From the IMG/VR virus record IMGVR_UViG_3300034122_001045: 64,000 bases of DNA; one strand, given 5' to 3'. Below, one piece after another: positions 3,945 through 51,816 of the stretch. The position numbers and the translations under genes are program-made. The first letter of the stretch is position 1. Every line of letters begins with the position of its first letter. Origin of the DNA: a virus (Duplodnaviria; Heunggongvirae; Uroviricota; Caudoviricetes). Under the pieces are notes generated by a model, which saw nothing but the letters and a program-made list of their open reading frames with translations, had not been told where the DNA came from and did no database searches.

Positions 3945-4249
3945 AGACGTTTAAGCAGTTTCTCGAAGAAAAGGATCCTCGTATCGAGAGAGCAGGAGTT
4001 GCCGGTTTCAATAAGCCAAAGGCGACTCCTAGTCATCCAGAAAAGAGTCACATAGTCGTTGCAAAGTCCGGCGATCAAGTAAAGACGATCCGCTTTGGAC
4101 AGCAAGGAGCCGAGACTGCGGGTGATCCTAAGGAAGGCGAATCCGAAAGAATGAAGATGAAGAGAAAGTCTTTCAAAGCTCGTCACGGTAAGAATATCGC
4201 TAAGGGAAAAATGTCGGCTGCTTATTGGGCCGATAAAGTTAAGTGGTAA
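3941..4249 (+). CDS. Small basic putative internal protein, CTS-like N-terminus (MKTFKQFLEE)
   Basis: ATGA overlap with the upstream gene. LxE at positions 8-10. Lysine-rich. Confidence 0.55.
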   Translation: MKTFKQFLEEKDPRIERAGVAGFNKPKATPSHPEKSHIVVAKSGDQVKTIRFGQQGAETAGDPKEGESERMKMKRKSFKARHGKNIAKGKMSAAYWADKVKW

Positions 4250-4252
4250 CTA

Positions 4253-4260
4253 CTTTTATA
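4253..4260 (+). promoter_or_regulatory. T4-type late promoter motif TATAAATA upstream of the 711-aa repeat protein gene
   Basis: Exact octamer, about 66 nt upstream of the ATG at 4326. Confidence 0.5.
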
Positions 4261-4325
4261 AATAAAGTAAGTAGATCTAGTATCAGCAATTCATGTTAGG
4301 CAATCAATTTCTAAGGACAGAATAA

Positions 4326-6461: not shown

Positions 6462-6626
6462 GTTGAATAGTCAGGTGTTTCGTAGAGTAATAGAAGTACT
6501 GAACGGAAAATGGATCGAAGATGTCATAAATAACTTCGATCCATACGGAATAAAAGAACAGACTGATATTGAGTTAAATAAAAAACATCATGAAAAAACA
6601 AAACTCAATAATAAGGAGAAAATAAA

Positions 6627-7250
6627 ATGAGTTTATGGGGAAAAACAGATACGCTAGCTTCGGTGCCTAAGTGGCTCAATGCTAACGATCCAAACAAGTC
6701 CAACGACCTAGACAACGCATTCTTCGTTGACCTAACAGAAGCAGCAGTTGCTTCAAACATAGCAAAAGGCCTAGGTACTCCTGGCTGGAACCTTTATCAT
6801 ACATACGTCGATGGAACTGGAAATACACGTCACAAAGCTGAACCGCTTATCGTGATGAAGGTAACAGCTGCAGCCGCAGGCGACCTAGGTATTAGCGGTA
6901 ACACTAATATTGAAGATACTACTGTACCTGACACTATCATTGCGATTACAGTACAACCAGCTAGCGTTTCACGAGTTGCACCTAACACTGCAACATTTAC
7001 TGTTACCGCAACAGCGACACCTACCGCAACACTTACTTACCAGTGGCAGATTCAGCAATCTAACGAATCTGGAACTACATGGACTAACGTAGGTACGAAC
7101 GCCGCTAGCTATACCACAGGTGTAACTGCAGTGGCACCAGGATCTGGCGCAACTAACGGCGATAAGTATCGTGTACTTGTTTCAGCACCAAATAATACAC
7201 CTACTGTTGTAACATCTTCTACCGCAGTACTAACGGTAACTGCATCATAA
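6627..7250 (+). CDS. Ig-like domain protein, probable virion decoration or surface protein
   Basis: C-terminal half is T/S/A-rich beta-strand-like (TYQWQIQQSNESGTTWTNVGTNAASYTT, typical of I-set/Big domains). Strong RBS AAGGAGAAAATAAAATG. Confidence 0.45.
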   Translation: MSLWGKTDTLASVPKWLNANDPNKSNDLDNAFFVDLTEAAVASNIAKGLGTPGWNLYHTYVDGTGNTRHKAEPLIVMKVTAAAAGDLGISGNTNIEDTTVPDTIIAITVQPASVSRVAPNTATFTVTATATPTATLTYQWQIQQSNESGTTWTNVGTNAASYTTGVTAVAPGSGATNGDKYRVLVSAPNNTPTVVTSSTAVLTVTAS

Positions 7251-7256
7251 TTTGAA

Positions 7257-7631
7257 ATGAAACTAGGAGAATCAACCTTTCTTCTCTACGCTGCAAAACA
7301 CTATGATAATCCGCATTGTTCAGACATAGCAGAGTTTGAGGAAGACCTAAAAAGATTTCAGTACTTACGAAAGCTTTTTAGTAGATATAAGCAGACAGGA
7401 GATCTTAAGGAAAGGTTGATTCTCAATCATCTTATCATTCTGTATAATTGTTTTGGTGTAGATGCTACGAACATGCTCTTTATGAAGCTAGAAGAGTATC
7501 ATAAATACTTAAAACCGTTTGTTGAATACTTAAACTTCATGCCCGCTTTCATAGAGTATGAAAATAAAAAGATACACAACAACCATATCGAATCCGATAG
7601 AACAATTGAAGAAACTCTTAAAGGCATCTAA
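7257..7631 (+). CDS. hypothetical protein
   Basis: 124-aa ORF, in series with its neighbours. Confidence 0.4.
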   Translation: MKLGESTFLLYAAKHYDNPHCSDIAEFEEDLKRFQYLRKLFSRYKQTGDLKERLILNHLIILYNCFGVDATNMLFMKLEEYHKYLKPFVEYLNFMPAFIEYENKKIHNNHIESDRTIEETLKGI

Positions 7632-7633
7632 CA

Positions 7634-8188
7634 ATGGTCGTAGATCTTTTCCTTGTATATAGCTTTATTCGTAGACTTACAACTCCATTTGAAAAATGGG
7701 AAGCGTATGCACAAGGCGTAATCGATAAAGATGGAAATATTCTAAAGAAGAAAAAAGAAAGAAACACTAGAGGTGAAAAAGATTCCTTTGGTATATTCGA
7801 TCTTATGGTGCTAAAGCTTAAGAAGCTTCTTGCAAAGATCCCAGGTGGTTCCACTCGTCTTGCTTCATACACTGCTGCGTTGTGGCTCATAAAAGAGTGG
7901 AACCATTTTTCCGAGGATTCTTTACTCACTGAGTCTATCACCGATGAGCAACTCGATGAATCTCTAGATTTATTTTTTAGCAGATATTGCTATTATATCG
8001 GTATAGAAGAAGATGTCAAGGAAAAAATGATAGAAGAACCGACAGTAAATGTCGGGTCTGGTAACATAGCTGGTCTCGGTGTTGGACCGCAGGGCGAACC
8101 TGGATTAACACCTTCGCAGATGAAGAAGTATAAAAAGAAGAACCCCGGTCCTAAGAGACTTAGAGATATAATAGGAGCAAACACATGA
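7634..8188 (+). CDS. hypothetical protein
   Basis: 184-aa ORF, ATGA-coupled to the endolysin gene. Confidence 0.4.
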   Translation: MVVDLFLVYSFIRRLTTPFEKWEAYAQGVIDKDGNILKKKKERNTRGEKDSFGIFDLMVLKLKKLLAKIPGGSTRLASYTAALWLIKEWNHFSEDSLLTESITDEQLDESLDLFFSRYCYYIGIEEDVKEKMIEEPTVNVGSGNIAGLGVGPQGEPGLTPSQMKKYKKKNPGPKRLRDIIGANT

Positions 8189-25048: not shown

Positions 25049-25552
25049 TGAATAAAGAAGAACGCAATAAGGCAATCGAGAAGATTCAGTCTGATGTTGA
25101 AGATATCAAGCATGATGTTGCTTTGATCATTCAGCACCTCCTTAAGAAAGATGAACCTAATCCAATTCCTCCTCATGTTCCATATCCTCGTGACGGTATT
25201 CCAACTCCTCCAGTGAAATGTTCAAAGTGTGGAATGGAGTTTAGAGGAGTAATGGGATATGTCTGTGCTGATATTCACTGTCCTACGTTTATGAGACCGT
25301 ATTACGGCACGAAAATTGTCACCACAGGGTACACTCCCTGGCAATCATATAATGAGAAGCCTAAAGAATGAACTGGTATGAATGGCTTGGTTATCACAGT
25401 ATGGATATTGATACAGGTGAAGACTCGCTTGACCTTATGAAGAAAGCATACATCGCAGGGCTTCAAACTGCTTATGACCAAATGTATAAAAATGAAGATG
25501 GCGACTATGACTTCGTTATGTGGCGCTTGAAAAATCTAATAGAGGAAAGCAA

Positions 25553-26044
25553 ATGAGCAACATGTTGAAATGGGCGGAAGCCGAACTTAAACTGGCTGGA
25601 TATGATATTAATGATCCAGAAGATGGACCAAACCGTTGGCTTGCAGAAGGAACGCTTGAGCTTCTCAAAGTGTTCTCAGAACAAGGACACAGCGGTATGT
25701 CGGCACCGTATGCAGTAGCTTTGTTTGAGAAGCTCGCATCATGGAAACCTATTGCTCCTTTGACTGGCGAATCTGACGAGTGGACGGAAGTCAGCGCAGA
25801 TATGTGGCAGAACAAACGTAACAGTTCTGTCTTTAAGGATGAAGATGGGCGACCATACTGGATGGATGGTCGAGTGTTTTGGGAATGGTATTCATCGCCA
25901 GATATTGACGAAGGTAAACCATATAAGAGCTACTATACGGGTCGTGAAAGCCGAGTGTTTATTGAGTTTCCGTGGACACAACCAGAAAAGCCTGAGTATG
26001 TTTTTGTACCAACAGAACAGTTTCCAAACGAGGTAATCGAATGA
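25553..26044 (+). CDS. hypothetical protein
   Basis: 163 aa from the internal start with RBS AGAGGAAAGCAA. Confidence 0.35.
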   Translation: MSNMLKWAEAELKLAGYDINDPEDGPNRWLAEGTLELLKVFSEQGHSGMSAPYAVALFEKLASWKPIAPLTGESDEWTEVSADMWQNKRNSSVFKDEDGRPYWMDGRVFWEWYSSPDIDEGKPYKSYYTGRESRVFIEFPWTQPEKPEYVFVPTEQFPNEVIE

Positions 26045-26986: not shown

Positions 26987-27952
26987 ATGAAAGCTTTACT
27001 ATCAGCGGCGGCAATTATTGCTTTGGCGTCCACGACTGCGTTTGCAAGAGATAACGTTCAAGTAACAGGATCGTCTACAGTACTACCATATGCAACCATT
27101 GTCGCAGAGGCATTTGGTGAAAATTTTGATTTTCCGTCGCCAGTAGTTGAAGGTGGTGGTTCGGGTGCAGGCCGTAAGAAGCTCTGCGAAGGTGTTGGTG
27201 AAAACACTGTTGACATCGCAAATAGTTCTTCAAAGATGAAGGATGAAGAAAGAGCCAAGTGTGAAGAAGCAATTGGTGAAGTGACTGAGGTTCGTATTGG
27301 TTATGACGGTATCGTGTTTGCATCGAACATCGATCAACTTAATATCGATAATCTAACAGTCGAACAACTCTATAGCGCTCTACACGAGTCGAGCACTGCA
27401 AAACTCTGGAGTGAAGTCGACTCGACTCTTCCAGAAGTAGCAATCCTTGCATACATTCCAGGTACCAAACACGGCACTCGTGAAGTGTTCGATGTAAAGG
27501 TGATGGAAGAAGGTTGTAAAGCAGCTCTCGGTGTTGAGAAACTCGATGACGATCAAAAGAAAGCTTGTGTGAAAGTAAGAACTGACGGTGCAGCAGTTGA
27601 CATCGATGGCGACTACACAGAAACACTTGCTCGTCTTGATGCTAATAAAACATCGCTAGGTGTGTTTGGTCTTAGCTTCTATCAGAACAACACTGATAAA
27701 CTAGAAGTTGCCACGGTAAGTGGCGTGGCACCAAGCGTAGAAACCATCTCAAGCGGTGACTATCCAATCAGCCGTCCACTTTACTTCTACGTGAAGAACG
27801 CTCACCTCAGCGTCATTCCTGGTCTGAAGGAATACATCGAGTTCTTCGTGAGTGATGAGATGGCAGGTCCTGATGGCGCTCTTGCACAGTATGGATTGGT
27901 TCCAGATCCAGAACTTGCAGCTACTCAGGCTGAAGTTTCTGCTCTTAAATAA
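26987..27952 (+). CDS. pstS: Periplasmic phosphate-binding protein PstS (auxiliary metabolic gene)
   Basis: Signal peptide. VTGSSTVLPYATIVAEAF is the PstS family N-terminal signature. 321 aa. Confidence 0.85.
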   Translation: MKALLSAAAIIALASTTAFARDNVQVTGSSTVLPYATIVAEAFGENFDFPSPVVEGGGSGAGRKKLCEGVGENTVDIANSSSKMKDEERAKCEEAIGEVTEVRIGYDGIVFASNIDQLNIDNLTVEQLYSALHESSTAKLWSEVDSTLPEVAILAYIPGTKHGTREVFDVKVMEEGCKAALGVEKLDDDQKKACVKVRTDGAAVDIDGDYTETLARLDANKTSLGVFGLSFYQNNTDKLEVATVSGVAPSVETISSGDYPISRPLYFYVKNAHLSVIPGLKEYIEFFVSDEMAGPDGALAQYGLVPDPELAATQAEVSALK

Positions 27953-27954
27953 GA

Positions 27955-28725
27955 ATGAAATATAAAAGCATCTTCATAAGTGATGTGCATTTAGGAACCA
28001 GAGGGTGTCAAGCAGACGCCCTCTGTGTTTTCTTAAAAAACAACACAAGCGAAAACCTATTCCTAGTTGGTGATATGCTGGATGGTTGGCGCTTAAAGAA
28101 ACGTTGGTACTTTCCACAGAGTCATGCCAATGTGATACGCAGAATACTCACGGCAGCTAAGCGTGGCACTAGAGTAGAATACATATTAGGTAATCACGAT
28201 GAAGCAGGCCGTAAGTTTTTAAACTTTGATATCAGCTTCGGTAATATTAAAGTAACTAACAGACAAGACTACATAGGTTTAGACGGCAAACGTTATCTGG
28301 TTATTCATGGTGACTTCTTTGACGTATTGATGCATGATAAAAAATGGTTGATGCACATTGGAGATACTTTGTATGACGCTATGATATATGCCAATGTTCA
28401 GTTTAATCGAGTAAGAAGTTTGTTTGGTATGGACTATTGGAGTTTAAGTAAATATCTAAAACAGAATACTAAACACGCGTTAAACTTTATCAATCGTTAC
28501 GAAGAACATCTAGCTGCCTATTGTAAGCAACATGGATATGACGGAATAATTTGTGGTCACATTCATCATGCTGAAATAAAAGAAATAAATGGTGTTATAT
28601 ACATGAACGATGGCGACTGGGTCGAGAGTGCCACCGCTCTGGTAGAACACTTTGATGGAAGATGGGAGATAGTGCATTATGCCGAAGATCTTAATAGTTA
28701 CAGACAACTTACCGAATCAGATTAA
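27955..28725 (+). CDS. Metallophosphoesterase (LpxH-like / phosphodiesterase)
   Basis: ISDVHLG, GDMLDGW, GNHDE, IHGDFFD and GHIHH motifs. Confidence 0.65.
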   Translation: MKYKSIFISDVHLGTRGCQADALCVFLKNNTSENLFLVGDMLDGWRLKKRWYFPQSHANVIRRILTAAKRGTRVEYILGNHDEAGRKFLNFDISFGNIKVTNRQDYIGLDGKRYLVIHGDFFDVLMHDKKWLMHIGDTLYDAMIYANVQFNRVRSLFGMDYWSLSKYLKQNTKHALNFINRYEEHLAAYCKQHGYDGIICGHIHHAEIKEINGVIYMNDGDWVESATALVEHFDGRWEIVHYAEDLNSYRQLTESD

Positions 28726-29686
28726 TGGTGTGGTTACGACCTACAAAAATATTGAGACGTATGCGATTCGCGACGGTTATACTGTTGATTATATTCATCC
28801 CGGGATGTACGGCCATATTGATTGCCCAAAGTACAATGAAGTTAAGCTTGCCTGGGCACCTCCTTGGGTTGTTGGGAAAGAGATCAAGAAGATTGATCCG
28901 GATTATATACACATCGCCACAGAAGGTCCTATGGGTATGTCTGCTAGAAGGTATCTTGCAATACGTGGGATTAAGTACAATACTGCTTACCATACTAAGT
29001 TTCCTGAAGGTGTAAGGACGTTACTAGGAATTCCTGAAGGAATTACTTGGGCAGTTGTGCGCTGGTTCCATAAGAATAGCAATAAGGTACTCACTACGAC
29101 AAAATCAATGGTCGATGAACTTCATGCGCATGGATTTAATAACAATGTTATTCATTGGACTCGAGGAGTTGATAGGGATATATTCAAACCGGCAGTGAAA
29201 GAACCATGCTCGCACATTAACCTCGTTTGCGTGAGTCGAGTAAGCAAAGAAAAAAATCTGGAAGCTTTTCTTGAGATAAACTACCCCAATGCAGTTAAAA
29301 CTATCGTAGGCGATGGTCCTATGTTAGAAACATACAAGAAGCAATATCCTTACGTGAACTTTGTAGGTGCCAAACGTGGTGCTGAACTCGCGCATTATTA
29401 TCAACAGGCTGATGTTTTTGTGTTTCCTAGTCGTTGGGATACATTTGGATTGGTGATGATTGAGGCAATGGCATGCGGTACTCCGGTCGCTGCTTATCCT
29501 GTGCAAGGACCATTAGACGTAATAGATCAAGATGTAACTGGTTATATGGATGAGGATATCACTATCGCTATTAAAAAATCTCTTGACCTCGATAGAGAAT
29601 CAGTATACAAATTCAGCATGAAATGGGATTGGGGAAACGCTTGGAACATTTTTCGAGACAATCTTATAAACTGTAAAACTAACTAG
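28679..29686 (+). CDS. Glycosyltransferase family 4 (GT-B fold)
   Basis: C-terminal E-x7-E motif, FGLVMIEAMACGTPV. Confidence 0.7.
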   Translation: MPKILIVTDNLPNQINGVVTTYKNIETYAIRDGYTVDYIHPGMYGHIDCPKYNEVKLAWAPPWVVGKEIKKIDPDYIHIATEGPMGMSARRYLAIRGIKYNTAYHTKFPEGVRTLLGIPEGITWAVVRWFHKNSNKVLTTTKSMVDELHAHGFNNNVIHWTRGVDRDIFKPAVKEPCSHINLVCVSRVSKEKNLEAFLEINYPNAVKTIVGDGPMLETYKKQYPYVNFVGAKRGAELAHYYQQADVFVFPSRWDTFGLVMIEAMACGTPVAAYPVQGPLDVIDQDVTGYMDEDITIAIKKSLDLDRESVYKFSMKWDWGNAWNIFRDNLINCKTN

Positions 29687-29696
29687 AGGATAAACC

Positions 29697-30455
29697 ATGA
29701 TTGTACTATTAGGATACGGCTTCGTTGGTAAAGCTCACTATAAAGCGTTTAGCCCTCATCACGAAATGTCTATCGTAGATCCGGCCTTCAGCAATATTCG
29801 TATCAAAGACATAGAAAACATTAGTGGTGCTATCGTCTGTGTTTCGACTCCATCATCTGAAGATGGAAGCTGTGATATGAGCATAATCTATAATGTAATT
29901 CAAGACATTCCAAAAGAAGCTCCAATTCTCATTAAGAGCACGATATCGATGGAGGGATGGGAAACTCTCGAAAGAAACTTTCCTGAACACTCCATCACAT
30001 TTAGTCCAGAATTTCTTCGAGCTGCAAGCGCAGACGACGACCTTAAGAACCTCACTCATGCGTTCTTGGCTGGCGGTAACGTTCAATACTGGTTAGATTT
30101 TTACACGACGGTGTATCCAGACATCAGCATAACTGTATGTAAGCCAAAGCACGCAATTGCCATCAAGTATTTTCGAAACTCGTTTCTTGCGGCAAAGTGT
30201 AGCTTCTTCAACGAGATCTACGATTTCTGTGAAACGCTCGGATTGGATTACGAGTCGGTTCGCTCTGGTGTCACGTTAGACTCTCGTATCGGTGAGAGCC
30301 ATACTTTTGTAAATGAGAACGATAGAGGCTGGGGCGGAGCGTGTTTTCCAAAGGATACCGCGGCGATTCTGCAGACGGCAAAGAACTCAGGCGTCGAGCT
30401 ACAGACGCTAGAAGCTGCCGTAAAATATAATGAGTCTGTTCGAAAAAAAGTTTAA
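29697..30455 (+). CDS. Nucleotide-sugar dehydrogenase (UDP-glucose/GDP-mannose dehydrogenase family), short form
   Basis: N-terminal Rossmann GYGFVGKA. Catalytic-Cys motif GGACFPKDTAAI. Only 252 aa, so no C-terminal UDP-binding domain. Confidence 0.55.
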   Translation: MIVLLGYGFVGKAHYKAFSPHHEMSIVDPAFSNIRIKDIENISGAIVCVSTPSSEDGSCDMSIIYNVIQDIPKEAPILIKSTISMEGWETLERNFPEHSITFSPEFLRAASADDDLKNLTHAFLAGGNVQYWLDFYTTVYPDISITVCKPKHAIAIKYFRNSFLAAKCSFFNEIYDFCETLGLDYESVRSGVTLDSRIGESHTFVNENDRGWGGACFPKDTAAILQTAKNSGVELQTLEAAVKYNESVRKKV

Positions 30456-30463
30456 GAAAGCCA

Positions 30464-30492
30464 TTGACATTTGCTTCTACATTGATTATATC
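30464..30492 (+). promoter_or_regulatory. Sigma70-like promoter
   Basis: TTGACA, then 17 nt, then TATATC, upstream of ORF 30519. Confidence 0.45.
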
Positions 30493-30789
30493 TATATTGT
30501 AAGCAATGGAGAACAACTATGGCTATCGCAATCGTGACCCCCGAAGAAGTTGAAGTCGACGTCTGCTACGGCAACTTTGACGGTTCCTATACCAAAACTA
30601 TGTATGTAGTTGACTTCTTTAGAACTGAAGTAGGTATGTTGCACGGCGATCTCGACACATCGATGTATATCAAGACTGAACACGATGCAAAGATGATGGC
30701 CCGACTTTATGAACTCGGCATGACCGGCCGTGGCGAATACAACGAGATTACCTTTAACAAGATTTTTGAAGATGCAGAGGTTGGCGAAG

Positions 30790-31314
30790 ATGCCTAAGGT
30801 TGAAGTTCTCGTAGGTCTGCCTGGTTCAGGTAAGTCGACTCGATTGTCGTTTGTTGACGATCCGGAGTTTGGTGGAGACGTCTTTGTGTATAGCACTGAT
30901 GCATATATCGAAGCTCGAGCCAAAGAAGCTGGTAAGTCTTACGACGACGTGTTCGGTGATCACATCAACGAAGCAACTAAGCATATGAATAATGTGCTTG
31001 CAATTGCTATCAGCGCAGGGATTGATGTGTACTGGGATCAGACTAATATGTCTTCGAAGAAGCGTAAGAGCATCTTGTCGAAGTTCCCTAAGAACTATCA
31101 CAAGGAATGTTGGTGCGTTCGTGTTCCTCAGACTGCTGAAGAGTGGGCTGAACTCGATCGTCGCCTTGATTCTCGTCCTGGGAAGACTATCCCTCATCAC
31201 ATCATTGAAGCTATGGCTGATTCCTATGTTGAACCTGAACTCGATGAAGGCTTCGATAAGATCACCATTGTCGACATCTTTTGCAATGTAATTATGGAGA
31301 AGAAAAATGCATGA
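30790..31314 (+). CDS. pnk: Polynucleotide 5'-kinase (T4 Pnk kinase domain only)
   Basis: VLVGLPGSGKST aligns with T4 Pnk LTIGCPGSGKST. WDQTNMSSKKR aligns with ISDTNLNPERR. Start taken at the internal Met, which has ATGCCTAA overlap with the upstream ORF. Confidence 0.7.
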   Translation: MPKVEVLVGLPGSGKSTRLSFVDDPEFGGDVFVYSTDAYIEARAKEAGKSYDDVFGDHINEATKHMNNVLAIAISAGIDVYWDQTNMSSKKRKSILSKFPKNYHKECWCVRVPQTAEEWAELDRRLDSRPGKTIPHHIIEAMADSYVEPELDEGFDKITIVDIFCNVIMEKKNA

Positions 31315-31616
31315 TATTGCGTACTTAGTTATTAATTGGAAATTGGAGGAATAGATGGCTTTTTATACTATGATTGGCTTCATTGTCGTTGCGGCTGTGA
31401 TTGGTGTTGGTGCGTATTGGGTGGTGTCAAATATCACGTTTAAACGCCAGCCTGAACGCTTCACGTATACCAAAGATGAAGATGGTAATGAATACGTCCG
31501 TGATAACACTGTAACAACGAAAGATAAACCTGATGTTTAAACCTGATCGCTATGACTTTAACACTAAAGCTGAGTATGAAGCAGCACTAAATCAATATAA
31601 TGAACGTAAAAGGAAA

Positions 31617-32489
31617 ATGAAAATGAATGCTATCGTTGGTGGAACTATCGCTACTGTCGTCGGTCTTACTGCACTGACTGTAATTGGCGGATCGTGGTAT
31701 ACTGTTGATGAAGGTTACCGTGGTGTAACTCTTCGTAACGGTGCCGTGGTTGGTACTGCAGAACCAGGTCTTGGATTTAAAATCCCTTTGATCGAAAAGG
31801 TGGTTGATATTTCTGTTCAATCACAGGCTCAGTTGTACGAGAACATCCTTGCTTACTCTCGTGATCAACAGACTGCGGGTCTAAACCTGTCTGTTAACTA
31901 TCGCTTCCCTGCAGATCAAGTTGAGACGATCTATCGTGAATATGGTGGCGAAGCTGGCGTGATCTCTCGCTTGCTTGATCGTCAGGTTCTTGAAGAAGTC
32001 AAGAACGTCTTTGGTAAGTTCAACGCAGCAACCGCTATTCAGGAACGTGAACGTCTTGCTGCAGAAGTTCAGATGGCAATCCAGAAAGCTGTAATTGGTC
32101 CTATCATCGTTGAGTCGGTTCAAATTGAGAACATCGACTTCTCTGATGCTTATGAACAATCGATTGAAGCTCGTATGCTTGCAGAAGTCGAAGTGCAAAA
32201 GGTTCGGCAGAACGCAGAACGTGAAAAGGTTCAGGCTGAGATCGTCGTGACTCAGGCACAGGCACAAGCCGACGCTCAACTAGCTCAAGCAGTTGCGGCC
32301 GCAGAAGCAACTCGTATTCAAGGTGAAGCAGAAGCAAGCGCGATTAAGGCGAAAGCAGAAGCTCTGAAGGATAACGCAGGTTTGATTGCTCTAGTTCAAG
32401 CTGAAAAGTGGAACGGTGCTCTTCCTACCACTATGATCCCAGACTCGACTGTTCCATTCATGGACGTTGTTGCTAAGCCAGCCCAGTAA
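31617..32489 (+). CDS. SPFH/Band-7 (prohibitin/HflKC-like) membrane protein
   Basis: N-terminal TM, a Band-7 core (YTVDEGYRGVTLRNG...) and a C-terminal Ala/Gln-rich coiled coil. The start could be as early as 31533. Confidence 0.75.
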   Translation: MKMNAIVGGTIATVVGLTALTVIGGSWYTVDEGYRGVTLRNGAVVGTAEPGLGFKIPLIEKVVDISVQSQAQLYENILAYSRDQQTAGLNLSVNYRFPADQVETIYREYGGEAGVISRLLDRQVLEEVKNVFGKFNAATAIQERERLAAEVQMAIQKAVIGPIIVESVQIENIDFSDAYEQSIEARMLAEVEVQKVRQNAEREKVQAEIVVTQAQAQADAQLAQAVAAAEATRIQGEAEASAIKAKAEALKDNAGLIALVQAEKWNGALPTTMIPDSTVPFMDVVAKPAQ

Positions 32490-32503
32490 GATAAAAATAT
32501 GAA

Positions 32504-32532
32504 GAAAAAGAGCGCTTCGGCGCTCTTTTTTG
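32504..32532. terminator. Rho-independent terminator (bidirectional; A-run/hairpin/T-run)
   Basis: AAAAAGAGCGC-ttcg-GCGCTCTTTTTT. Confidence 0.7.
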
Positions 32533-32592
32533 TTTACAATCTCATAAAACTAGTTTATACAGAACAAGTATGAACCAATTCGGAGAATCGTT

Positions 32593-33717
32593 ATGGAAGT
32601 TAAAACAAGCACTGAGAACCTGTATAAGGTAGATACAAAAGGTAAGACGCGAGTCTGGCGAGCAGAGACCGGCACTGATGGAACTCGATGGGGTCTACGG
32701 ACGATCTCAGGGCTTCAGGACGGAAAACAGATTACTTCTGAATGGACCTTCGTTGAACAAAAGAACGTCGGACGCTCAAACGAGACGTCTCTCGAAGCGC
32801 AAGCAAACGCTGAGATGGTATCTGAAATGCAGAAGAAAGAAGATACTGGCTATTTCTCTAACATCGATATGATCCATACCTTTGATAAGTTCAAGCCGAT
32901 GTTGGCTGAGAAGTATGAAGAGGTTCCGGTTAACTGGTCAAAGGGATACATCTATAGTCAACCGAAGCTCGATGGCATTCGTTGCATCGCTCGTAAGGAT
33001 GGTCTATGGACTCGCGCAGGAAAAGAAATCGTCGCTGTTCCTCACGTCTGGGAGTCGCTGCAGTCTTATTTTGAAAAGAATCCAAACTTAATTCTTGACG
33101 GCGAACTCTATAATCACGAGCTGAAGGATGACTTCAACACCATCACCTCGATGGTTCGTAAGACAAAACCGAAGCCCGAAGACATCATGAAATCGAAGGA
33201 ACTCGTGCAGTATCACGTCTATGACGTCTATGTGACTGATAGTCCGGATCTGCCGTTCCGTAAGCGTGAGCTGTTGCGCTACGAAGCTTCGAACGAATTC
33301 GTAAAGATGGTTCCGACCATGCAGGTCAACGATCCGCAGTCGATCGATACTCTGTATGAGGGTTATCTCGAACATGGATACGAAGGTCAGATGATCCGCA
33401 TCGATGGTCGTTACGAGAACAAGCGTACGAAAAACTTGCTGAAGCGTAAAGAGTTCTTGACCGACGAGTTCGAAGTCAAGGAAATGATGTCTGGTATTGG
33501 AAACTGGCAGGGATGCACTAAACATTTTGTTTTGAAACTGAATGATACTCGTGACTTCCAAGCTGGTGTTCGTGGTGACATGGACACTCTACGTGCTCTC
33601 TGGGATGCAGGCAAGAAACCCGATTGGGTTACTCTTCGCTACTTCACTCCGACTCCGGATGGCGTTCCTCGGTTTCCAGTCGTAATCGATTGGGGCTTTG
33701 GAAAAAGAGAAGATTAA
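32593..33717 (+). CDS. ATP-dependent DNA ligase (compact, T7-like size)
   Basis: KxDG adenylation motif SQPKLDGIRCIARKDG. 374 aa. Confidence 0.8.
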   Translation: MEVKTSTENLYKVDTKGKTRVWRAETGTDGTRWGLRTISGLQDGKQITSEWTFVEQKNVGRSNETSLEAQANAEMVSEMQKKEDTGYFSNIDMIHTFDKFKPMLAEKYEEVPVNWSKGYIYSQPKLDGIRCIARKDGLWTRAGKEIVAVPHVWESLQSYFEKNPNLILDGELYNHELKDDFNTITSMVRKTKPKPEDIMKSKELVQYHVYDVYVTDSPDLPFRKRELLRYEASNEFVKMVPTMQVNDPQSIDTLYEGYLEHGYEGQMIRIDGRYENKRTKNLLKRKEFLTDEFEVKEMMSGIGNWQGCTKHFVLKLNDTRDFQAGVRGDMDTLRALWDAGKKPDWVTLRYFTPTPDGVPRFPVVIDWGFGKRED

Positions 33718-33740
33718 ATGAAAAAGAGTGCACTTTCCTA

Positions 33741-33769
33741 TTTACATTCATTTAGAATCAGTATATTCT
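33741..33769 (+). promoter_or_regulatory. Early promoter, conserved cassette
   Basis: CACTTTCCTATTTACATTCATTTAGAATCAGTATATTCTAATAATGTAAGGAACGAAAGGAAC. Confidence 0.6.
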
Positions 33770-33798
33770 AATAATGTAAGGAACGAAAGGAACATCCG

Positions 33799-33984
33799 AT
33801 GTTTGTACTCACTCTTGCTGCTGACTACGAAGGTGAAACCCTTCTAGGCGTATACTCGTCTCGTGAACTCGCAGAAGCTGCTTCGCAACAGTATCTGGTT
33901 GATGCTGAACGTGATCTGCCATCTTATGAGCAGTTCGTTGTTCGTGAAGTCGCAGTTGATGCACCTGCAGAATATCGCTTCTAA
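33799..33984 (+). CDS. Small early protein, unknown function
   Basis: 61 aa, directly after the cassette. Confidence 0.55.
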   Translation: MFVLTLAADYEGETLLGVYSSRELAEAASQQYLVDAERDLPSYEQFVVREVAVDAPAEYRF

Positions 33985-33994
33985 GGAGAATCAG

Positions 33995-34156
33995 ATGTAC
34001 AAGGTCTACGCACACTACGAAGAGTTCGATCGTTACGGCGATCGACTCGAGTCTTACGACATGTTTAGAGCAGACACAAAAGAAGAGGTCGAAAAGATCG
34101 TTGAAGGTCTCGACAAAGAGTACTATGTTTTTATTGAAATCGCAAAGGTGATCTAA
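33995..34156 (+). CDS. small protein
   Basis: 53 aa, RBS GGAGAA. Confidence 0.35.
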   Translation: MYKVYAHYEEFDRYGDRLESYDMFRADTKEEVEKIVEGLDKEYYVFIEIAKVI

Positions 34157-34506
34157 GATGACTTGGAACCTGTTTCTTGATGACGAACGTAACCTCGAGG
34201 ATGCCACTTGGGCACCTTGGCAGGTTCGCGAGAAGTATCGTAACGAAGAGTGGGTGATCTGCCGCAATTTTTATGAAGTTGTTATAGCTGTTAGGACGAG
34301 AGGAATGCCATCATATATTTCATTTGATCACGATCTTGGTCAAGATGAACCCACCGGTCACGATGTCGCTAAACGTATTATGTATTGGGATATGAATGAT
34401 AAGCGCTACCCGCTTCCAGACAACTTTGACTTCTACGTCCACTCACAAAACCCTATCGGCAAAGCAAACATCGAAGGCTTGCTGAACAACTATCTGAGGA
34501 TTATAA

Positions 34507-34953
34507 ATGCTAATCGTATTTGACTTGGACGGAACACTCGCTAACATCGAGCATCGTTTGGACTATGTTCGTAGCAAGCCTAAGAACTGGGCTGCATTTG
34601 ATGCTGGCATTCCGAATGATAAAGTGAACCGATTTGTTGCGGAAGCCTTTCACTCTCTAAGTGCTGCTAGGAACACCATTGTCCTAGCGAGCGGTCGCAA
34701 CGAGCGCAGTCGTGAAGCCACAGTCGCATGGTTGACTAAGAACAACCTGCATACGTGGGACAAGCTCTACATGCGTCCCGCAGATGACTTCCGTGGTGAT
34801 GATATTGTAAAGCGTGAAATGCTGGATCAAATCATCTCTGACTTTGGTAAGAAGCCAGACATGGTGTTTGACGATCGTCCTCGCGTGGTTCGCATGTGGC
34901 GTGATGCTGGTATCTTTGTGTTTAACGTCTATCAAGGTGAGGAGGACTTCTAA
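34507..34953 (+). CDS. pnk: Polynucleotide 3'-phosphatase (T4 Pnk phosphatase domain only; HAD-like)
   Basis: VFDLDGTLA (DxDxT). ASGRNERS aligns with T4 VVSGRESG. DDRPRVVRMWRDAGIFVFNV aligns with T4 [20 protein letters not shown]. Confidence 0.75.
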   Translation: MLIVFDLDGTLANIEHRLDYVRSKPKNWAAFDAGIPNDKVNRFVAEAFHSLSAARNTIVLASGRNERSREATVAWLTKNNLHTWDKLYMRPADDFRGDDIVKREMLDQIISDFGKKPDMVFDDRPRVVRMWRDAGIFVFNVYQGEEDF

Positions 34954-35519
34954 TGGGTAAACATATCAAAACTCAACTGGACTACGATCTAATCGAAACT
35001 CTTGCACAGGAGTTGCATCGAGTGGATCCAGATAATGCTAAACTGAAACACTATCTGGCAATGGATAACTTTGAAGGTGGAGAGCTGCGTAAGGCAGTTA
35101 CAAAGGTGAGCAAATGATTGACACAGCAGGCGCATATATTCTTATTCTAATCAGCTCTTATAACGGAGCTGCTATTACAACACTGGAATTCCCTAATTAT
35201 GATTCTTGCAAATCTGCTATTACACAGCTTGAGCCGGTGCGCGCCTTGGAAGGATATTGTATTGCAAAGGAAGTAAAATGACTGACGAAGAACTGGTGAA
35301 GCGGCTGCGGAAGCGGCAAGAGTTTGAGTCTATTGACGGGTACAAGCGGATTGAGTGGAAAGATGAAGATGCTCTCGAAGCCGCCGACCGCATCGAAGAA
35401 CTAGAGGACAATCTGGCGAAGGCCGTCGGGGGTCTTAATGCAATCTATGTTTGGGGAGAAGACACGTATGCAAGAGATATGGCCCGCACCACGCTGGGCG
35501 AGATTGCGGGAAAGAAGAC

Positions 35520-35816
35520 ATGGTAAGTAACGAAGAACTAAAATCTCCAATTAATGCCTTCCAACAGTTAATGGCAATTACAGCAGAAGAATCGGGCGAA
35601 TTAACTCAAGTCTGCATGAAAATTATGCGTAAGTATGATAACATGGAAGATATGTCTAAAGACAAATATAGGTATCAACTAGTTGAAGAAGCAGGTGATG
35701 TGCTTTGTATGATTAAACTAATGGTAGAACACGGCGTCTTGACTAATGATGAATTAGATGATAGAGTAGATGTAAAGCGAAATAAACTTAAAACTTGGAG
35801 TAATTTAATTAAATGA
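35520..35816 (+). CDS. MazG-like nucleotide pyrophosphohydrolase (putative)
   Basis: EEAGDVLCMIKLM resembles the EExxD MazG helix. 98 aa. Confidence 0.4.
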   Translation: MVSNEELKSPINAFQQLMAITAEESGELTQVCMKIMRKYDNMEDMSKDKYRYQLVEEAGDVLCMIKLMVEHGVLTNDELDDRVDVKRNKLKTWSNLIK

Positions 35817-36150
35817 CCAAATATGTAATCGTAACTGCTATCTCGTCTTACCGTATGCGGTATTGTATTCCTGTAGATGAACTGCAGGAATTGAACGTTG
35901 AAGTTCCTGTCGAAGGACGTGAGATCGAATGGGCTGAAGACTGTGTTACCTGTGACGAGGTAGTAGAGTTTTCTCAGAAGCACGTTGGCGAGACTATCAT
36001 CGACTCGGAGATTCTCACCGAAGAACAGATGCTCGAGAAGTTCGACGCTGACAACGACTATCTTAAAGATTGGACTCGTGAGAAGAAGGTCGAATACGTT
36101 CGCAATTGGAAAAATATTTCCTAAAAAATCGTGGTCAGTGCACTTTCCTA

Positions 36151-36179
36151 TTTACATTCGTTTAGAATCAGTGTATTCT
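36151..36179 (+). promoter_or_regulatory. Early promoter, conserved cassette
   Basis: Near-identical to 33731-33790. Confidence 0.6.
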
Positions 36180-36209
36180 AATAATGTAAGGAACGAAAGG
36201 AAACTGACC

Positions 36210-36416
36210 ATGATGACCTTCAACGAACACAACGAAGCTACCAACTCCATCAAGCCGGTTATGATCCATAAGACTTTCAAAGGTTACATGGTCTTTACCC
36301 CCGAGGGTCGTCTGCTCGACAACTTCACCTCAGCCGGTCCTTTCGTGGACTTCGAAGCTGCTAAGCGTAACGCCGAAACGAATGTCGGTATGGCAATGAA
36401 CTGGAGTGACTTCTAA
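36210..36416 (+). CDS. Small early protein, unknown function
   Basis: 68 aa. C-ending codons. Confidence 0.55.
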   Translation: MMTFNEHNEATNSIKPVMIHKTFKGYMVFTPEGRLLDNFTSAGPFVDFEAAKRNAETNVGMAMNWSDF

Positions 36417-36918
36417 TGACCGCTGTAATGATCCCCGTCGTCTTTCTTATCGTACTCGTTGTGTACGGTGCAATCGAAGATCTTGTGCTAGGAAAAGCAG
36501 AATGACTTGTTCTTCGTGTAACAGTGACTGCAACCAGGGTCGTGCCTGCCCAAGCCGAAGTAGTATTGAAAGAGTAGGCTTCCTTCGGATTAAGTGGTCC
36601 GGTTTTCATTGGTATCGTGCCGAAGATTTTGAAGAAGTCACTGATGGTTACAGCTATGCAGATGGTGCCATCGTGTTGGGTTTGTTTGTCTATCGGTATC
36701 GTGTATGGCGCAAAGCAAAGATTAAAAATGACTGACGAAAAACAATACGAAGTGGCGAATGGTCTCTGGATTGGTTCTAAATTTGGAGACCTCCGCCGCG
36801 AACGAGAGAAGCTTATGAAGAAACTCGTTCAAGATAATGACGCTTCGGTAAAGCCACGAATTCGTGAACTCACTCTTGAGATGACAGAGTATCTATCGAG
36901 TCGAAAAAGGAACACCTA

Positions 36919-38061
36919 ATGCACTACGCCTTTCCTATCATACGCACCATCGAAGACGTCCTTCCTCACATCGAAGGTCGTCCTGAGTTCGTTGTGGCAG
37001 AACGTGAAGGGTATACCATCGTCAACTATGTGGTGGCGATGGCTGACACCTTTGATATGACTGGCCCCGATGACCTTGGTGGCGCGATCCGCCGTGAATG
37101 CCGTGGTCTTATCTTTGATGCTGATGGTAACCTGATGAGCCGCCCGTTTCACAAGTTCTTCAACGTGAACGAACGTGAAGAGACTCAAGCACATCGGTTG
37201 GATCTCAGTGTTTTGTTTGATCACGTGATCATGGAAAAGCTCGATGGTTCGATGATCCGTCCTATCTTGGTCGATGGTTACCTTCGTCTTGCTACCAAGA
37301 TGGGCGTGACTGAAGTGGCTATGCAGGCTGAGACCTGGCTTGCTGCTCAGGACCCTTCGTTGAACGAATGGCTTCGTCAGTGTGTACACGACTCGGTGAC
37401 TCCGATCTTTGAGTGGGTAAGCCCGTTCAACCAGATCGTGTTGGCATACGAAGAAGCAGACCTCGTGTATCTTGGTACTCGTGACAACGCAACCGGTGCG
37501 TATGTAATGGATAAGTCTTGTCCGTTCTCCACTGTTCCTCGTTATGGTAGTGTAGAAGGCAACCTTGCTGACTACATTAGCCGTCAGCGCGGTGCAGAAG
37601 GTCGTGAGGGTGACATCATTCGTTTTGCTGATGGCCATATGGTTAAGGTCAAGAATGATTGGTATGTGCGTATCCACAAGACTGTGGATCGTATCGTGTT
37701 CGACCGTAACATCGTTGCTCTTATCCTCAACGAGGAAATGGACGACGTGATGCCGATGCTACCTGTCATTCAGGCAAACCGTGTTCGTAACTTTGAGGTT
37801 CGTTTTGCAGAGCGGCTTCATGCTGTCGTAGAAATCTACGATCGCTACTGGAACACCGTGGTCGCAAGCGGTCTCGACCGCAAGCGTTACGCTTTGGAGT
37901 GGATGCCGTCCATCAAGGACAACGACTCATTCGCTCCTAACTATGTGTTTGGGCGTTTCGCTGGCCGTGACGGTCGCGAGATGATCCTTGATCATATCGA
38001 AAAGCAATTGTCGTCTAACGTCAAGTGGGATGAATGCGCAACTTGGATGGGAATGAAGTAA
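36919..38061 (+). CDS. rnlA: RNA ligase 1 (T4 RnlA-like)
   Basis: ECRGLIFDADGNLMSRPFHKFFNVNE aligns with T4 ECRGIMFEMDG..SRPMEKFFNLNE. KxDG motif MEKLDGSM. 380 aa. Confidence 0.85.
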   Translation: MHYAFPIIRTIEDVLPHIEGRPEFVVAEREGYTIVNYVVAMADTFDMTGPDDLGGAIRRECRGLIFDADGNLMSRPFHKFFNVNEREETQAHRLDLSVLFDHVIMEKLDGSMIRPILVDGYLRLATKMGVTEVAMQAETWLAAQDPSLNEWLRQCVHDSVTPIFEWVSPFNQIVLAYEEADLVYLGTRDNATGAYVMDKSCPFSTVPRYGSVEGNLADYISRQRGAEGREGDIIRFADGHMVKVKNDWYVRIHKTVDRIVFDRNIVALILNEEMDDVMPMLPVIQANRVRNFEVRFAERLHAVVEIYDRYWNTVVASGLDRKRYALEWMPSIKDNDSFAPNYVFGRFAGRDGREMILDHIEKQLSSNVKWDECATWMGMK

Positions 38062-39201
38062 ATGACTTATTGGGCTACACTATGGTACTCTGGTGCGGTC
38101 GTGATGCAGCTTGGCTATGAAGGTCAAACTGCCGACGAGTGTTTGTCACTCACGCGAACGATGACGTTAGACCTTGAGCAGAGTTATGCGGAACCGGAAA
38201 ATATCGATCCGCAAACTTTGTTCATGTTTCCGACGAATGAATTCGCCGTGAGCTGCGAGATGGAAGAGCTCGGCATCGATGAAAAATACGCTAAAGAGAA
38301 TTGAAAGATGGTCGAATTTGTAGATGTAGCAATTAGCGACCTTGTTTCAGTTACAAAGTTCCTTCGCAGCATCAATCCATCCTTTAAGGATAAGCTCGTT
38401 GTAGGTATTGAAAAACCACAAAGCATGGACCGAAGCGTGGTGTTTCATCTGTCTTCAAAAGAAGACGTAGAAGAAGACATCATCTTTATGCTATGTGCCG
38501 AATATATTCTTGAACATCCCTATTGGAAACAAAATAAATAGTTCTTTAATAGGATGGGAGTGATTGCATGTCTTTGGTACAGGAACTAGAAGATCTCATA
38601 AGAAGAACTGGCTCTCATCACGACAGAGAGATCCTGACGAGAGTTTTAGAACAACTAAGTAAATCTGCAAAAAGCTCTTCGTGAAATTTCACGAAGAGCG
38701 CAAGGTTGTAAGAAAGTAACTTTAGAATAAGAGGGCGATATGGCAACGAAGCAAGAATATGCAAAATGGTGTATGATGCTAATCGAGGGTGAGGATTTCA
38801 TGGTGGATGATATCTTTGAAGCAATGCACGATGATGGTTTTATTGACGAAGCTCAAGAATGGGTATATGATGAAGACGAAGATAACTGAAGCAGAGATGC
38901 TGAATGATATTCTTTGGTTGCTTACTATCGTAAAGCAAGTATCCGACTATCGGATTGATAATGAAAAACTAAAAGAGATACGAGAAAAATATGAATGAAT
39001 TTGTTGTTCTAGGCATTGTGTTATTGCTCGTAGCTACATTCATTCGTGGCGCGATCATCGTGTTTTCAAAAAATTTTTGGTTAGCGCTAGCGCTATTCTT
39101 TTTAATCCTTCCTCTCTTTGTACTATGGGCATTCGTCGAAGGATTTTTTAACTGGTCGGACTGATAAATAAGTTAGGTATTTCAATAGGATTGGAGCATA
39201 A

Positions 39202-49594: not shown

Positions 49595-49825
49595 ATGTAC
49601 GTCGCCGAACTCGACATCTCCGCCGAAGCCTCGCAAGAATCCATTCATCAGTTCGCAACCGAACACGGCTGCACCGCTCTTCTTATCATGGAATACGGCC
49701 CTGCCGGCGGTAACCCTCTCTATCAGTTCTCGTCTAACAGTCAAGACTGCCTCGAGGAACTCGTCTCTCAAGTACTAGGTGACATCGACTATCAACATAT
49801 CCTCGACGCAATCCGAGAAATCTAA
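49595..49825 (+). CDS. small early protein
   Basis: 76 aa. C-ending codons. Confidence 0.5.
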   Translation: MYVAELDISAEASQESIHQFATEHGCTALLIMEYGPAGGNPLYQFSSNSQDCLEELVSQVLGDIDYQHILDAIREI

Positions 49826-49832
49826 AAAGTAG

Positions 49833-49861
49833 TTGACATTCGTTTAGAATCAGTGTATTCT
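49833..49861 (+). promoter_or_regulatory. Early promoter, conserved cassette
   Basis: TTGACATTCGTTTAGAATCAGTGTATTCTAATAATGTAAGGAACGAAAGGAAC. Confidence 0.6.
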
Positions 49862-49890
49862 AATAATGTAAGGAACGAAAGGAACCTCCT

Positions 49891-51436: not shown

Positions 51437-51751
51437 TGAGATACGCGATTGCAGAAGAAGATCTAGGTTTCTTTCTGGGCGCGTTCCAGAAGTATGGAAT
51501 CTTTGCTAAGAATGATGTCATAGGTCTCTCAAAGGCAATCGCATTTGATACCGAGGATGAAGCGAATCTATACATCGACGATTTTCTCGGACGAGATCGT
51601 GGAGTCTGGAAAGTAATTCCGGTCGACACGAAAGACGAATACGTTAGTGTCGTATACCTAGTGAAGAATGGTTATGGAAAGTATACTCATAAGATGATTG
51701 ATTTCATTCCTATGACTTCTACAACTATGCACTAATTTTTTCATTTAATGG

Positions 51752-51780
51752 TTGACATTCGTTTAGAATCAGTGTATTCT
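51752..51780 (+). promoter_or_regulatory. Early promoter, conserved cassette
   Basis: Identical core to the cassette at 49833. Confidence 0.6.
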
Positions 51781-51816
51781 AATAATGTAAGGAACACAAA
51801 CTGAAAGGTCTACAGA

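Follow-up and report, generated by a model that had tools for sequence, protein, structure and literature searches.

The locus described here raises the question of whether a T4-like phage depends on the fused polynucleotide kinase-phosphatase of T4, Pnkp (Pnk; gene pseT), to prepare RNA ends for RNA ligase 1 (Rnl1; gene rnlA), or whether the same chemistry can be divided among separate proteins. It lies in a 64,000-nucleotide (nt) stretch of a tailed-phage genome (Caudoviricetes; IMG/VR record IMGVR_UViG_3300034122_001045), hereafter the window, in which a P-loop kinase, a HAD phosphatase and an Rnl1 are encoded by three open reading frames (ORFs) on the plus strand (Table 1). An earlier note on this sequence took the first two for T4 Pnk split into two genes and all three for a dispersed RNA-repair set. 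Our analysis supports a related model whereby the set is an RNA end-healing and end-sealing toolkit with each activity on its own small protein, a reading that we hold at a probability of about 70%. It rests on the families to which the proteins belong, on catalytic residues that are conserved, on overlaps between genes, and on the repeated linkage and fusion of these families in other phages. The heal-and-seal set with Rnl1 proposed earlier is thus plausible, but it was incomplete, having overlooked a cREC gene and a small gene that we call lead92; a MazG-like gene and a family of promoter-like cassettes had also gone unnoticed.

In the proposed pathway, cREC would probably first open a cyclic phosphate at the 3' end to a monoester, and the PNKP-type HAD phosphatase would then remove the phosphate. 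The stand-alone P-loop kinase would phosphorylate the 5'-OH, and Rnl1 would join the resulting 3'-OH and 5'-PO4 ends via lysyl-AMP at K107. The three chemical steps predicted for the set are the same as those of T4 Pnkp and Rnl1.

Results

A PNKP-type phosphatase and a T4-type RNA ligase

As the earlier note had it, the HAD protein aligns with the C-terminal half of T4 Pnk only (residues 162-300; 29% identity, E = 2e-12). It carries the motifs FDLDGTL, ASGR and FDDRP...MWRDAG and matches the HAD_PNKP family (PF25109) with 102.8 bits against a cut-off of 27.6, residues 3-145 covering profile positions 4-142 of 143. Among solved structures it matches PDB 4xrp (E = 1.4e-9) and the T4 phosphatase domain (8e-7). 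Its residues D6, D8, S62, K102 and D123 align with T4 D165, D167, S211, K258 and D278, which make up the T4 phosphatase site with D165 as nucleophile and D167 as acid-base (PMC3592404). In phage records, stand-alone phosphatases of this type are often misleadingly named 'polynucleotide kinase'.

The third gene is, as claimed for RnlA, that of a full-length T4-type RNA ligase 1. In BLASTP it is 29% identical to T4 RnlA over 332 columns (E = 2e-33); it matches PDB 2c5u with E = 6e-30, query residues 59-369 lying on T4 residues 52-368, and Pfam PF09511 with 89.3 bits (cut-off 28.3). Rnl1 enzymes are recognised by the motif I lysine (KxDG), the motif III glutamate, the EG of motif IV and the KxK of motif V, and here K107 (KxDG), E165, E230-G231 and K243/K245 are aligned with the matching T4 residues. 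At another locus (L176, 8271-10214, on the 279-kb JGI contig Ga0643543_0000005), the Rnl1 gene that follows an 89-residue gene appears interrupted, a 228-residue gene on the opposite strand lying between a 196-residue N-terminal and a 184-residue C-terminal part; the interruption may be an inserted mobile element.

A stand-alone kinase distant from T4 Pnk

Judged by sequence, the kinase is only remotely related to the T4 Pnk kinase domain and is a member of a large family of stand-alone kinases of about 170 residues. Its ATG is the start in all 40 aligned homologues. The motifs that the earlier note had pointed out in the two proteins are all present (GLPGSGKST at residues 9-17 and WDQTN at residues 82-86 of the kinase; DLDGT and SGR in the phosphatase), and the P-loop, YSTD, WDQTN, KKR and RxxxRxGK of the kinase are invariant or nearly so across the 40 homologues. 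BLASTP aligns residues 1-148 with residues 1-145 of T4 Pnk (NC_000866) and no further (27% identity, pairwise E = 1e-5), which bears out the claimed restriction to the N-terminal half; hhalign with the family profile finds the same half with a probability of 95.8% (E = 7.5e-9). In Pfam the protein belongs to AAA_33 (PF13671; 46.6 bits, cut-off 27). Six residues are essential for the kinase activity of T4 Pnk, namely K15, S16, D35, R38, D85 and R126 (PMC2831316), and five of them have equivalents in the window kinase (K15, S16, D37, D83 and R129), each invariant in the 40 homologues.

Searched as a single sequence with phmmer, the kinase has no significant match in the PDB (T4 Pnk, E = 0.43). 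The family profile matches PSTK (3e-6), RazKIN (8e-6), Capnocytophaga Pnkp1 (5e-5), T4 Pnk (1.8e-4) and mammalian PNKP (3e-3), all of them nucleic-acid end or tRNA kinases, and among PHROGs the kinase scores 4.4e-19 with phrog_6931, which includes a CP20-type member composed of HD and kinase domains, 1e-17 with phrog_2071 and 5.5e-9 with the Pnk family phrog_505. The assignment of this half to Pnk is therefore narrowly outscored, by phrog_6931, phrog_2071, PSTK and RazKIN; the families that score better are themselves nucleic-acid end or tRNA kinases. The PSTK match is confined to the kinase domain (chain residues 12-150 of 259), and membership of the PSTK/Kti12 group was rejected, since the protein stops at residue 174 without the C-terminal tRNA-binding second domain (the matched PSTK chains in the PDB have about 260 residues). 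The JGI name for the kinase clade (P0001-P0120), 'tRNA uridine 5-carbamoylmethylation protein Kti12', is misleading. A tblastn search of 50,697 phage records with the kinase gave 108 matching records; Escherichia is absent from their organism summary and from the best 40 of the 108 matches listed.

The AlphaFold2 (AF2) model of the kinase, with a predicted local distance difference test score (pLDDT) of 92, bears on a different proposal, in which the protein is a Zeta-toxin-like kinase or a kinase of small molecules or nucleotides, lead92 is its antitoxin or inhibitor, and no RNA is repaired. Zeta toxins are UDP-GlcNAc kinases, and together with PezT they give the best Foldseek E values (3e-7). 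The Pfam Zeta_toxin family (PF06414) is matched as well, although marginally (27.2 bits, cut-off 22.3) and by a protein of only 174 residues, a homologue is annotated 'zeta toxin' in one phage record, and lead92, small, acidic and upstream of the kinase gene, would be translationally coupled to it. However, the superposition on zeta structures is poor, with a root-mean-square deviation (rmsd) of 5-7 Å and a target TM-score of 0.38-0.49, whereas Pnk structures superpose at 3.2-3.7 Å with a TM-score of up to 0.69; by these measures, the closest structures are T4 Pnk (rmsd 3.2-3.4 Å) and Clostridium thermocellum Pnk (TM 0.66). The kinase is also about 100 residues shorter than zeta toxins (240-272 residues in the matched PDB chains), and members of its family carry fused PNKP-HAD or HD domains or adjoin RNA ligases. 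In 6 of 11 loci lead92 directly precedes Rnl1 and has no kinase beside it, and its predicted fold is rich in beta structure, unlike that of the epsilon antitoxin, which is a three-helix bundle. We consider a toxin-like or metabolic kinase highly improbable. The Foldseek comparison of the model confirms a predicted P-loop kinase of the Pnk, zeta, PSTK and gluconate-kinase group and makes no choice within it. For an identity as polynucleotide kinase the sequence alone is weak evidence, and gene context decides.

Gene linkage and fusions of the kinase family

Context and fusions argue for a predicted polynucleotide 5'-OH kinase activity of the family. In P0396 (320 residues) and P0489, both among the 150 representatives nearest to the window's HAD protein, an N-terminal kinase of the window family is joined to a HAD domain in the T4 order, the kinase profile matching the two fusions with E = 7e-33 and 2e-22. 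The kinase part of P0396 matches the window kinase (E = 7e-22), and the whole protein aligns end to end with T4 Pnk (E = 4e-27). These fusions link the two window genes functionally and form a bridge from the window kinase to the T4 kinase domain. Several other HAD representatives show an apparent reverse order, HAD-kinase, with weaker profile matches (2e-7 to 3e-4). A second fusion partner is the HD domain: in the Bacillus phages Nate and KoopaTroopa an RNA ligase gene is followed by a kinase-HD fusion (AAA_33 and HD confirmed by Pfam in Nate), and Campylobacter phage CP20 has an HD + kinase fusion, the HD-Pnk architecture.

Unfused relatives also keep company with RNA-repair genes. The Ruegeria phages RpAliso and DSS3P8 carry an Rnl1-type ligase gene and then the kinase gene, stop and start overlapping, with a separate HAD_PNKP gene 2.4-3.5 kb upstream. 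Xanthomonas phage XacN1 (L009, AP018399) encodes a kinase, Hen1 and a PNKP_ligase-domain protein in three consecutive genes (4992-8066) and so has a Pnkp/Hen1 system in disassembled form; the name 'metallophosphoesterase' has been given to the third gene, whose only Pfam match is the Pnkp ligase domain. In 80 IMG/VR kinase loci, a sample that includes near-duplicate contigs and contigs truncated at their ends, an Rnl1-family ligase lies within 6 kb of the kinase in 27, a PNKP-HAD in 25 and a cREC in 7, all on the same strand; in 12 of the 80 the ligase is at most 300 nt away.

The same neighbourhoods bear on whether the kinase and the phosphatase instead heal DNA ends, that is, 5'-OH and 3'-phosphate nicks, for a DNA ligase in phage DNA replication or repair, much as mammalian PNKP does. 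A DNA ligase gene does sit between the two genes in the window, and one lies near the kinase gene in RpAliso, Nate, KoopaTroopa and L001 as well; the kinase lacks an equivalent of T4 R38, as does mammalian PNKP (PMC2831316), and DNA is also a substrate of T4 Pnkp and of the Mucorales kinase (PMC11571804). Yet within 300 nt of the kinase, the 80 loci hold a DNA ligase only once against 12 Rnl1-family RNA ligases, the fusion and neighbour partners HD, Hen1, PNKP_ligase and cREC are members of RNA-repair systems, and the window has an Rnl1 gene of its own, 2 kb from HAD. A role at DNA ends therefore seems to us quite unlikely, and RNA repair remains the preferred reading.

Whether the two genes were ever joined is a separate matter. 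Among the nearest 150 HAD cluster representatives, 109 have at most 170 residues and 21 at least 250, and the kinase ORF is of stand-alone size in 79 of the 80 kinase loci; both families thus usually occur as separate genes. The earlier description as a split T4 Pnk stands in that the two genes match the two Pnkp halves and gives way in that the kinase is remote from T4 and separate genes are usual. We think it probable that kinase and HAD are modular relatives of the T4 Pnkp domains and not a recent break of T4 pseT; fission and an ancestral separate state are both compatible with the data.

The spacing in the window is as previously noted, with 3.2 kb from the end of the kinase gene to the start of the HAD gene, the DNA ligase in between, and a further 2.0 kb from the end of the HAD gene to Rnl1. 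The close relative L012 has the same gene order. In L019, cREC, HAD, a 115-residue ORF and the kinase follow one another, with Rnl1 1.2 kb further, all in about 4 kb, and in L106 and L109-L111 HAD, kinase and Rnl1 are contiguous, with cREC 1-3 kb further. The same modules are therefore compact in related phages and spread over 7.5 kb in the window.

A cREC gene overlapping the phosphatase gene

Before HAD lies a gene whose product matches cREC_REC (PF20274) with 77 bits (cut-off 27). Its end, stop codon included, shares 17 nt with the start of the HAD gene, and from this arrangement the two genes are predicted to be translationally coupled. The family's conserved residues D8, D9, D57, H58, D59, H95, S96 and K102 are all present, and D8, D9, D57, S96 and K102 belong to its receiver-like acidic pocket; in the 28 homologues aligned, D9 and K102 are kept by 90% or more and the other six positions by all. 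cREC and HAD are also adjacent in the relatives L012, L014-L016 and L018/L019. Proteins of the cREC family have been predicted to open 2',3'-cyclic phosphates at RNA ends or in ADPr>p, and have been called experimentally uncharacterised (PMC7824862, PMC9503650). The T4 HAD domain by itself converts RNA>p to RNA-OH (PMC3592404), so that a coupled cREC would be either an accelerator of, or a specialist for, the first step, or would act on another substrate.

Another substrate is the core of a further alternative, in which cREC, possibly with HAD and MazG, destroys nucleotide or ADP-ribose molecules as an anti-defence measure (ADPr>p, cyclic ADPR-type immune signals or other cyclic nucleotides), leaving only the kinase and Rnl1 to repair RNA. 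The literature names ADPr>p and cADPr as alternative substrates and describes Nudix fusions and sirtuin links of cREC (PMC7824862, PMC9503650). Its neighbours are diverse: in 80 IMG/VR cREC loci they include a 376-residue AAA protein, a protein that is Sir2-like by motif and one with a calcineurin-phosphoesterase motif, and HAD is adjacent in only 5 of them, plus L012. A gene for the Thoeris inhibitor Tad3 lies 8 kb upstream, so the region does hold anti-defence genes. The HAD protein, on the other hand, falls in the PNKP-type family specifically and has retained all T4 phosphatase residues that were checked, the overlap of the cREC stop with the HAD start recurs in the nearest relatives, and in L019 the cREC-HAD pair and the kinase form one contiguous block, followed 1.2 kb later by Rnl1; one cREC neighbour also has, on inspection of its sequence, HNH-like cysteines and a ligase KxDG motif. 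We therefore regard signal destruction as unlikely and RNA 3'-end healing as the better account of the pair.

In more distant loci (L001, L004, L010, L020 and L040), cREC is followed not by HAD but by a conserved AAA-type ATPase of 369-377 residues. In L010 and L011 the kinase is directly followed by a 387-residue protein without a family match, and in L004 a similar protein of 386 residues is encoded some 2.4 kb downstream, immediately ahead of a Thg1-like gene. The L010 gene and its L004 counterpart were considered as candidate ligases and set aside: they have no Pfam match, and ligase identity could not be shown.

lead92 and the promoter-like cassettes

The stop of lead92 overlaps the kinase ATG by 8 nt (ATGCCTAA). 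The protein has no Pfam or PHROG match and 52 homologues, all of 87-96 residues; its AF2 model is mediocre (pLDDT 67) and finds no fold match with an E value below 0.4. In 11 IMG/VR loci fetched with lead92 itself, the gene stands directly before Rnl1 in six and directly before the kinase in three, and about 0.8 kb upstream of cREC-HAD in the remaining two. Its relatives lie in L019 (8630-8899), L176-L178 and L182-L192, and in L183 a MazG gene is directly upstream of it. The DNA of the window and of L019 is about 87% identical through lead92, and the homology stops exactly at the next start codon, which is that of the kinase in the window and that of Rnl1 in L019. Two readings fit: lead92 works together with the repair genes, or it marks a junction at which recombination is preferred. 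A universal partnership with the kinase was rejected, since the phiN3 kinase has an unrelated protein upstream.

Two nearly identical cassettes (97% identity over 66 nt) stand at the front of two units, one with cREC and HAD and the other ending with Rnl1. The 44-nt core of the cassette occurs four times in the window against none expected, the further two copies at 49833 and 51752. Weaker copies at 17978, 16411, 21404, 39454, 42332 and 49538 extend the family, which lies in intergenic gaps and consists of TT[G/T]ACA and TATTCT, separated by a conserved spacer of 17 nt, and of a conserved leader that holds a ribosome-binding site. The cassettes are probably phage early promoters and possibly also sites of modular gene shuffling. 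The earlier note had proposed that the split would allow end healing and end sealing to be regulated independently. The shared cassette speaks against this: its presence on two of the three units suggests co-regulation of cREC-HAD and Rnl1. The lead92-kinase unit has its own promoter candidate (Table 1), which a consensus scanner missed because the -10 hexamer ends in C, and a hairpin downstream of Band_7 is a possible terminator that would close the kinase unit and could act in either direction. A consensus scan of 30000-38600 for promoters and terminators gave counts no higher than in shuffled sequence.

It is tempting to combine these observations into a joint reading in which kinase, cREC and HAD would each carry one Pnkp activity (cREC as cyclic phosphodiesterase, HAD as monoesterase), lead92, a previously unrecognised protein that is coupled or adjacent to Rnl1, the kinase or cREC-HAD, would add a fourth component without enzymatic activity, and the cassettes would enable reshuffling between phages. 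lead92 could then be an adaptor or specificity factor, or an inhibitor of a host RNA-cutting defence. We offer this combination as a tentative idea and would not expect it to hold in full.

The phage and the neighbouring genes

The window comes from a T4-like myovirus, uncultured and abundant, whose genome measures about 205-218 kb. Its exact proteins recur on 43-60 metagenomic contigs, the longest of 217,966 bp, where they are annotated 'hypothetical protein' except for the ligase ('RNA ligase'). PHROG matches in the window include major head, portal, scaffold and sheath families, and a T4-type RNase H, ribonucleotide reductase, thymidylate synthase and dihydrofolate reductase are also encoded. 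Among the 50,697 phage records, region 30500-38100 has no megablast match, and blastn finds only short patches of 67-78% identity in the DNA ligase and Band_7 genes; these records thus contain no isolate that is a sequenced close DNA relative of the region.

The MazG-like ORF between HAD and Rnl1 matches phrog_4856 (4.8e-18), its Pfam MazG match being weak and below the cut-off (E = 0.003); MazG is among the members of published cREC, tRNA-ligase and kinase neighbourhoods (PMC9503650). The sirtuin, 2H, Nudix, KptA, Thg1 and RlaP families of Pfam have no match among 49 ORFs of the window, of which ten, including the 822-residue ORF 96-2564, were scanned against PHROGs only.

Further upstream, the Tad3 match (PF25185, E = 6.7e-39) lies at 25520-26044 and is also found in the relatives L012, L177 and L178. 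Directly upstream of the repair set is a run of host-like genes (26987-30455) for a PstS-type phosphate-binding protein, a calcineurin-like phosphoesterase, a family-4 glycosyltransferase (with a match to the 'GT4-conflict' model too) and a UDP-glucose-dehydrogenase-like protein. Imperfect direct repeats of several families, 32-68 nt long, occupy 2994-6172 inside ORFs 2574-3371 and 4326-6461, whose large, repetitive products of unknown function are rich in motifs such as EELDELSKKTLGSY.

Table 1 Coordinates of the predicted repair genes and other features in the window
Feature	Position	Strand	Remark
Sigma-70-like promoter candidate (TTGACA, 17 nt, TATATC)	30464..30492	+	Before lead92 and kinase; read from sequence
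lead92, acidic 92-residue protein (isoelectric point 4.25), candidate accessory gene	30519..30797	+	
Stand-alone P-loop kinase, 174 residues, predicted polynucleotide/RNA 5'-OH kinase	30790..31314	+	
Band_7 protein	31533-32489		Between kinase and HAD genes
Perfect palindromic G+C-rich hairpin (AAAAAGAGCGC TTCG GCGCTCTTTTT) with A/T-run flanks	32505..32530		Between Band_7 and DNA ligase
ATP-dependent DNA ligase	32593-33717		Between kinase and HAD genes
Promoter-like cassette (TTTACA, 17 nt, TATTCT, conserved leader with AAGGAA)	33727..33792	+	Heads cREC-HAD unit
cREC protein, 121 residues, predicted metal-independent 2',3'-cyclic phosphodiesterase	34158..34523	+	
Stand-alone PNKP-type HAD phosphatase, 148 residues, predicted RNA 3'/2'-phosphatase	34507..34953	+	
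MazG-like nucleoside triphosphate pyrophosphohydrolase, possible associate	35520..35816	+	Between HAD and Rnl1; likely ATG 35520 in ORF 35451-35816
Promoter-like cassette, second copy	36137..36202	+	Heads unit ending with Rnl1
T4-type RNA ligase 1, 380 residues	36919..38061	+	Start overlaps stop of upstream small ORF (TAATG)
Further cassette copies	49819-49884, 51738-51803		Repeat finding

Discussion

Several observations weigh against an RNA heal-and-seal toolkit. In the kinase, the position of T4 R38 is taken by I40 and varies across the family, the top solved match of the profile is PSTK, a Ser-tRNA kinase and not a Pnk, and Foldseek against the PDB places zeta toxins first by E value and matches PFKFB and gluconate kinase too. 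The closest kinase homologues (L094-L104) have neither ligase nor HAD within 6 kb, and the make-up of the locus sample given above tempers the linkage counts. With 21.9 bits, the all-helical C-terminal domain of Rnl1 that gives tRNA specificity (PF20819; cut-off 27) falls short of the family threshold; in the pairwise comparison, T4 Rnl1 can still be aligned up to residue 369 of 380 (T4 368). tRNA and Rfam scans of the whole window found no tRNA genes or RNA families. ADP-ribose derivatives have been proposed as alternative cREC substrates (PMC9503650), and with a T4 HAD domain that turns RNA>p into RNA-OH alone (PMC3592404), cREC is not strictly needed. Finally, we infer the enzymatic activities, the RNA substrate and the roles of cREC, lead92 and MazG. 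That the host has PrrC- or RloC-type nucleases, as the earlier note supposed, can only be surmised, and many tRNA- or RNA-cleaving defences would fit.

The likeness to T4 extends beyond the predicted chemistry. HAD and Rnl1 are clear homologues of their T4 counterparts, each with 29% identity, the former with all checked residues and the latter over its full length with all nucleotidyltransferase motifs, the kinase keeps five of six essential residues, and in both phages the genes lie in the early, nucleotide-metabolism part of the genome near a DNA ligase. The window differs in that kinase and phosphatase are on two genes 3.2 kb apart, the kinase being remote and without R38, and in that cREC is coupled to HAD and lead92 to the kinase. 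In T4, Pnkp assembles from both domains into a homotetramer, an arrangement that cannot apply in the window.

The nearest cultured parallel is offered by RpAliso and DSS3P8, Ruegeria/Roseobacter phages of about 147-149 kb with the same split set of HAD_PNKP, Rnl1-type ligase and kinase, whose kinase and HAD are 44% and 40% identical to those of the window; in RpAliso both genes are already annotated 'polynucleotide kinase'. In these phages, however, ligase and kinase genes are adjacent and overlapping, and by annotation the phages are not T4-like myoviruses. No cREC was found by profile in an 18-kb stretch of RpAliso, and none is annotated in the DSS3P8 stretch. HD-Pnk enzymes, an end-healing type to which the HD-Pnk of Runella slithyformis belongs, are represented by the CP20 (HD + kinase) and Nate (kinase-HD) proteins and share a kinase module of the window kinase's family, but their 3' partner is a fused HD phosphoesterase in place of a separate HAD phosphatase and cREC. 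The Mucorales KIN and its separate RNA ligase are a precedent for a usually fused heal-and-seal enzyme that occurs as monofunctional proteins, and RazKIN (176 residues in PDB 9d8a) is a biochemically validated stand-alone RNA 5'-OH kinase (PMC11571804). That system differs in being a eukaryotic, GTP-preferring, 2'-phosphate-generating Trl1-type pathway, and the sequence similarity is remote.

The set also resembles the cREC neighbourhoods described by Iyer, Burroughs, Aravind et al., in which a T4-like tRNA ligase occurs with cREC, a nucleotide kinase and MazG, in some cases also with a phosphoesterase (PMC7824862, PMC9503650). The window holds all of these members; it differs in having no sirtuin, 2H or Nudix partner among its scanned ORFs and in that cREC overlaps specifically a PNKP-type HAD gene. 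As for Pnkp/Hen1, the XacN1 kinase homologue directly before Hen1 and the PNKP_ligase-domain protein is 44% identical to the window kinase, an arrangement that suggests that the window's kinase family replaces the Pnkp kinase domain there, whereas the window has neither Hen1 nor a Pnkp-type ligase and uses Rnl1.

Modular phage RNA-repair sets are already annotated in the cultured Ruegeria phages and surveyed in the literature, and the present one is only modestly new. It does not alter what is known of how phages counter RNA-cutting immunity, and its small additions are the coupled cREC-HAD pair and the travelling lead92. For a clade whose public annotations are mostly 'hypothetical protein' or misleading, it brings to notice a small conserved protein that travels with repair genes. 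It also provides a clean natural test bed for the cREC prediction, because here cREC is coupled to a phosphatase whose T4 counterpart needs no helper. Finally, the locus would mean that RNA healing and sealing in T4-like phages is not bound to a fused Pnkp and may be built from interchangeable single-domain modules.

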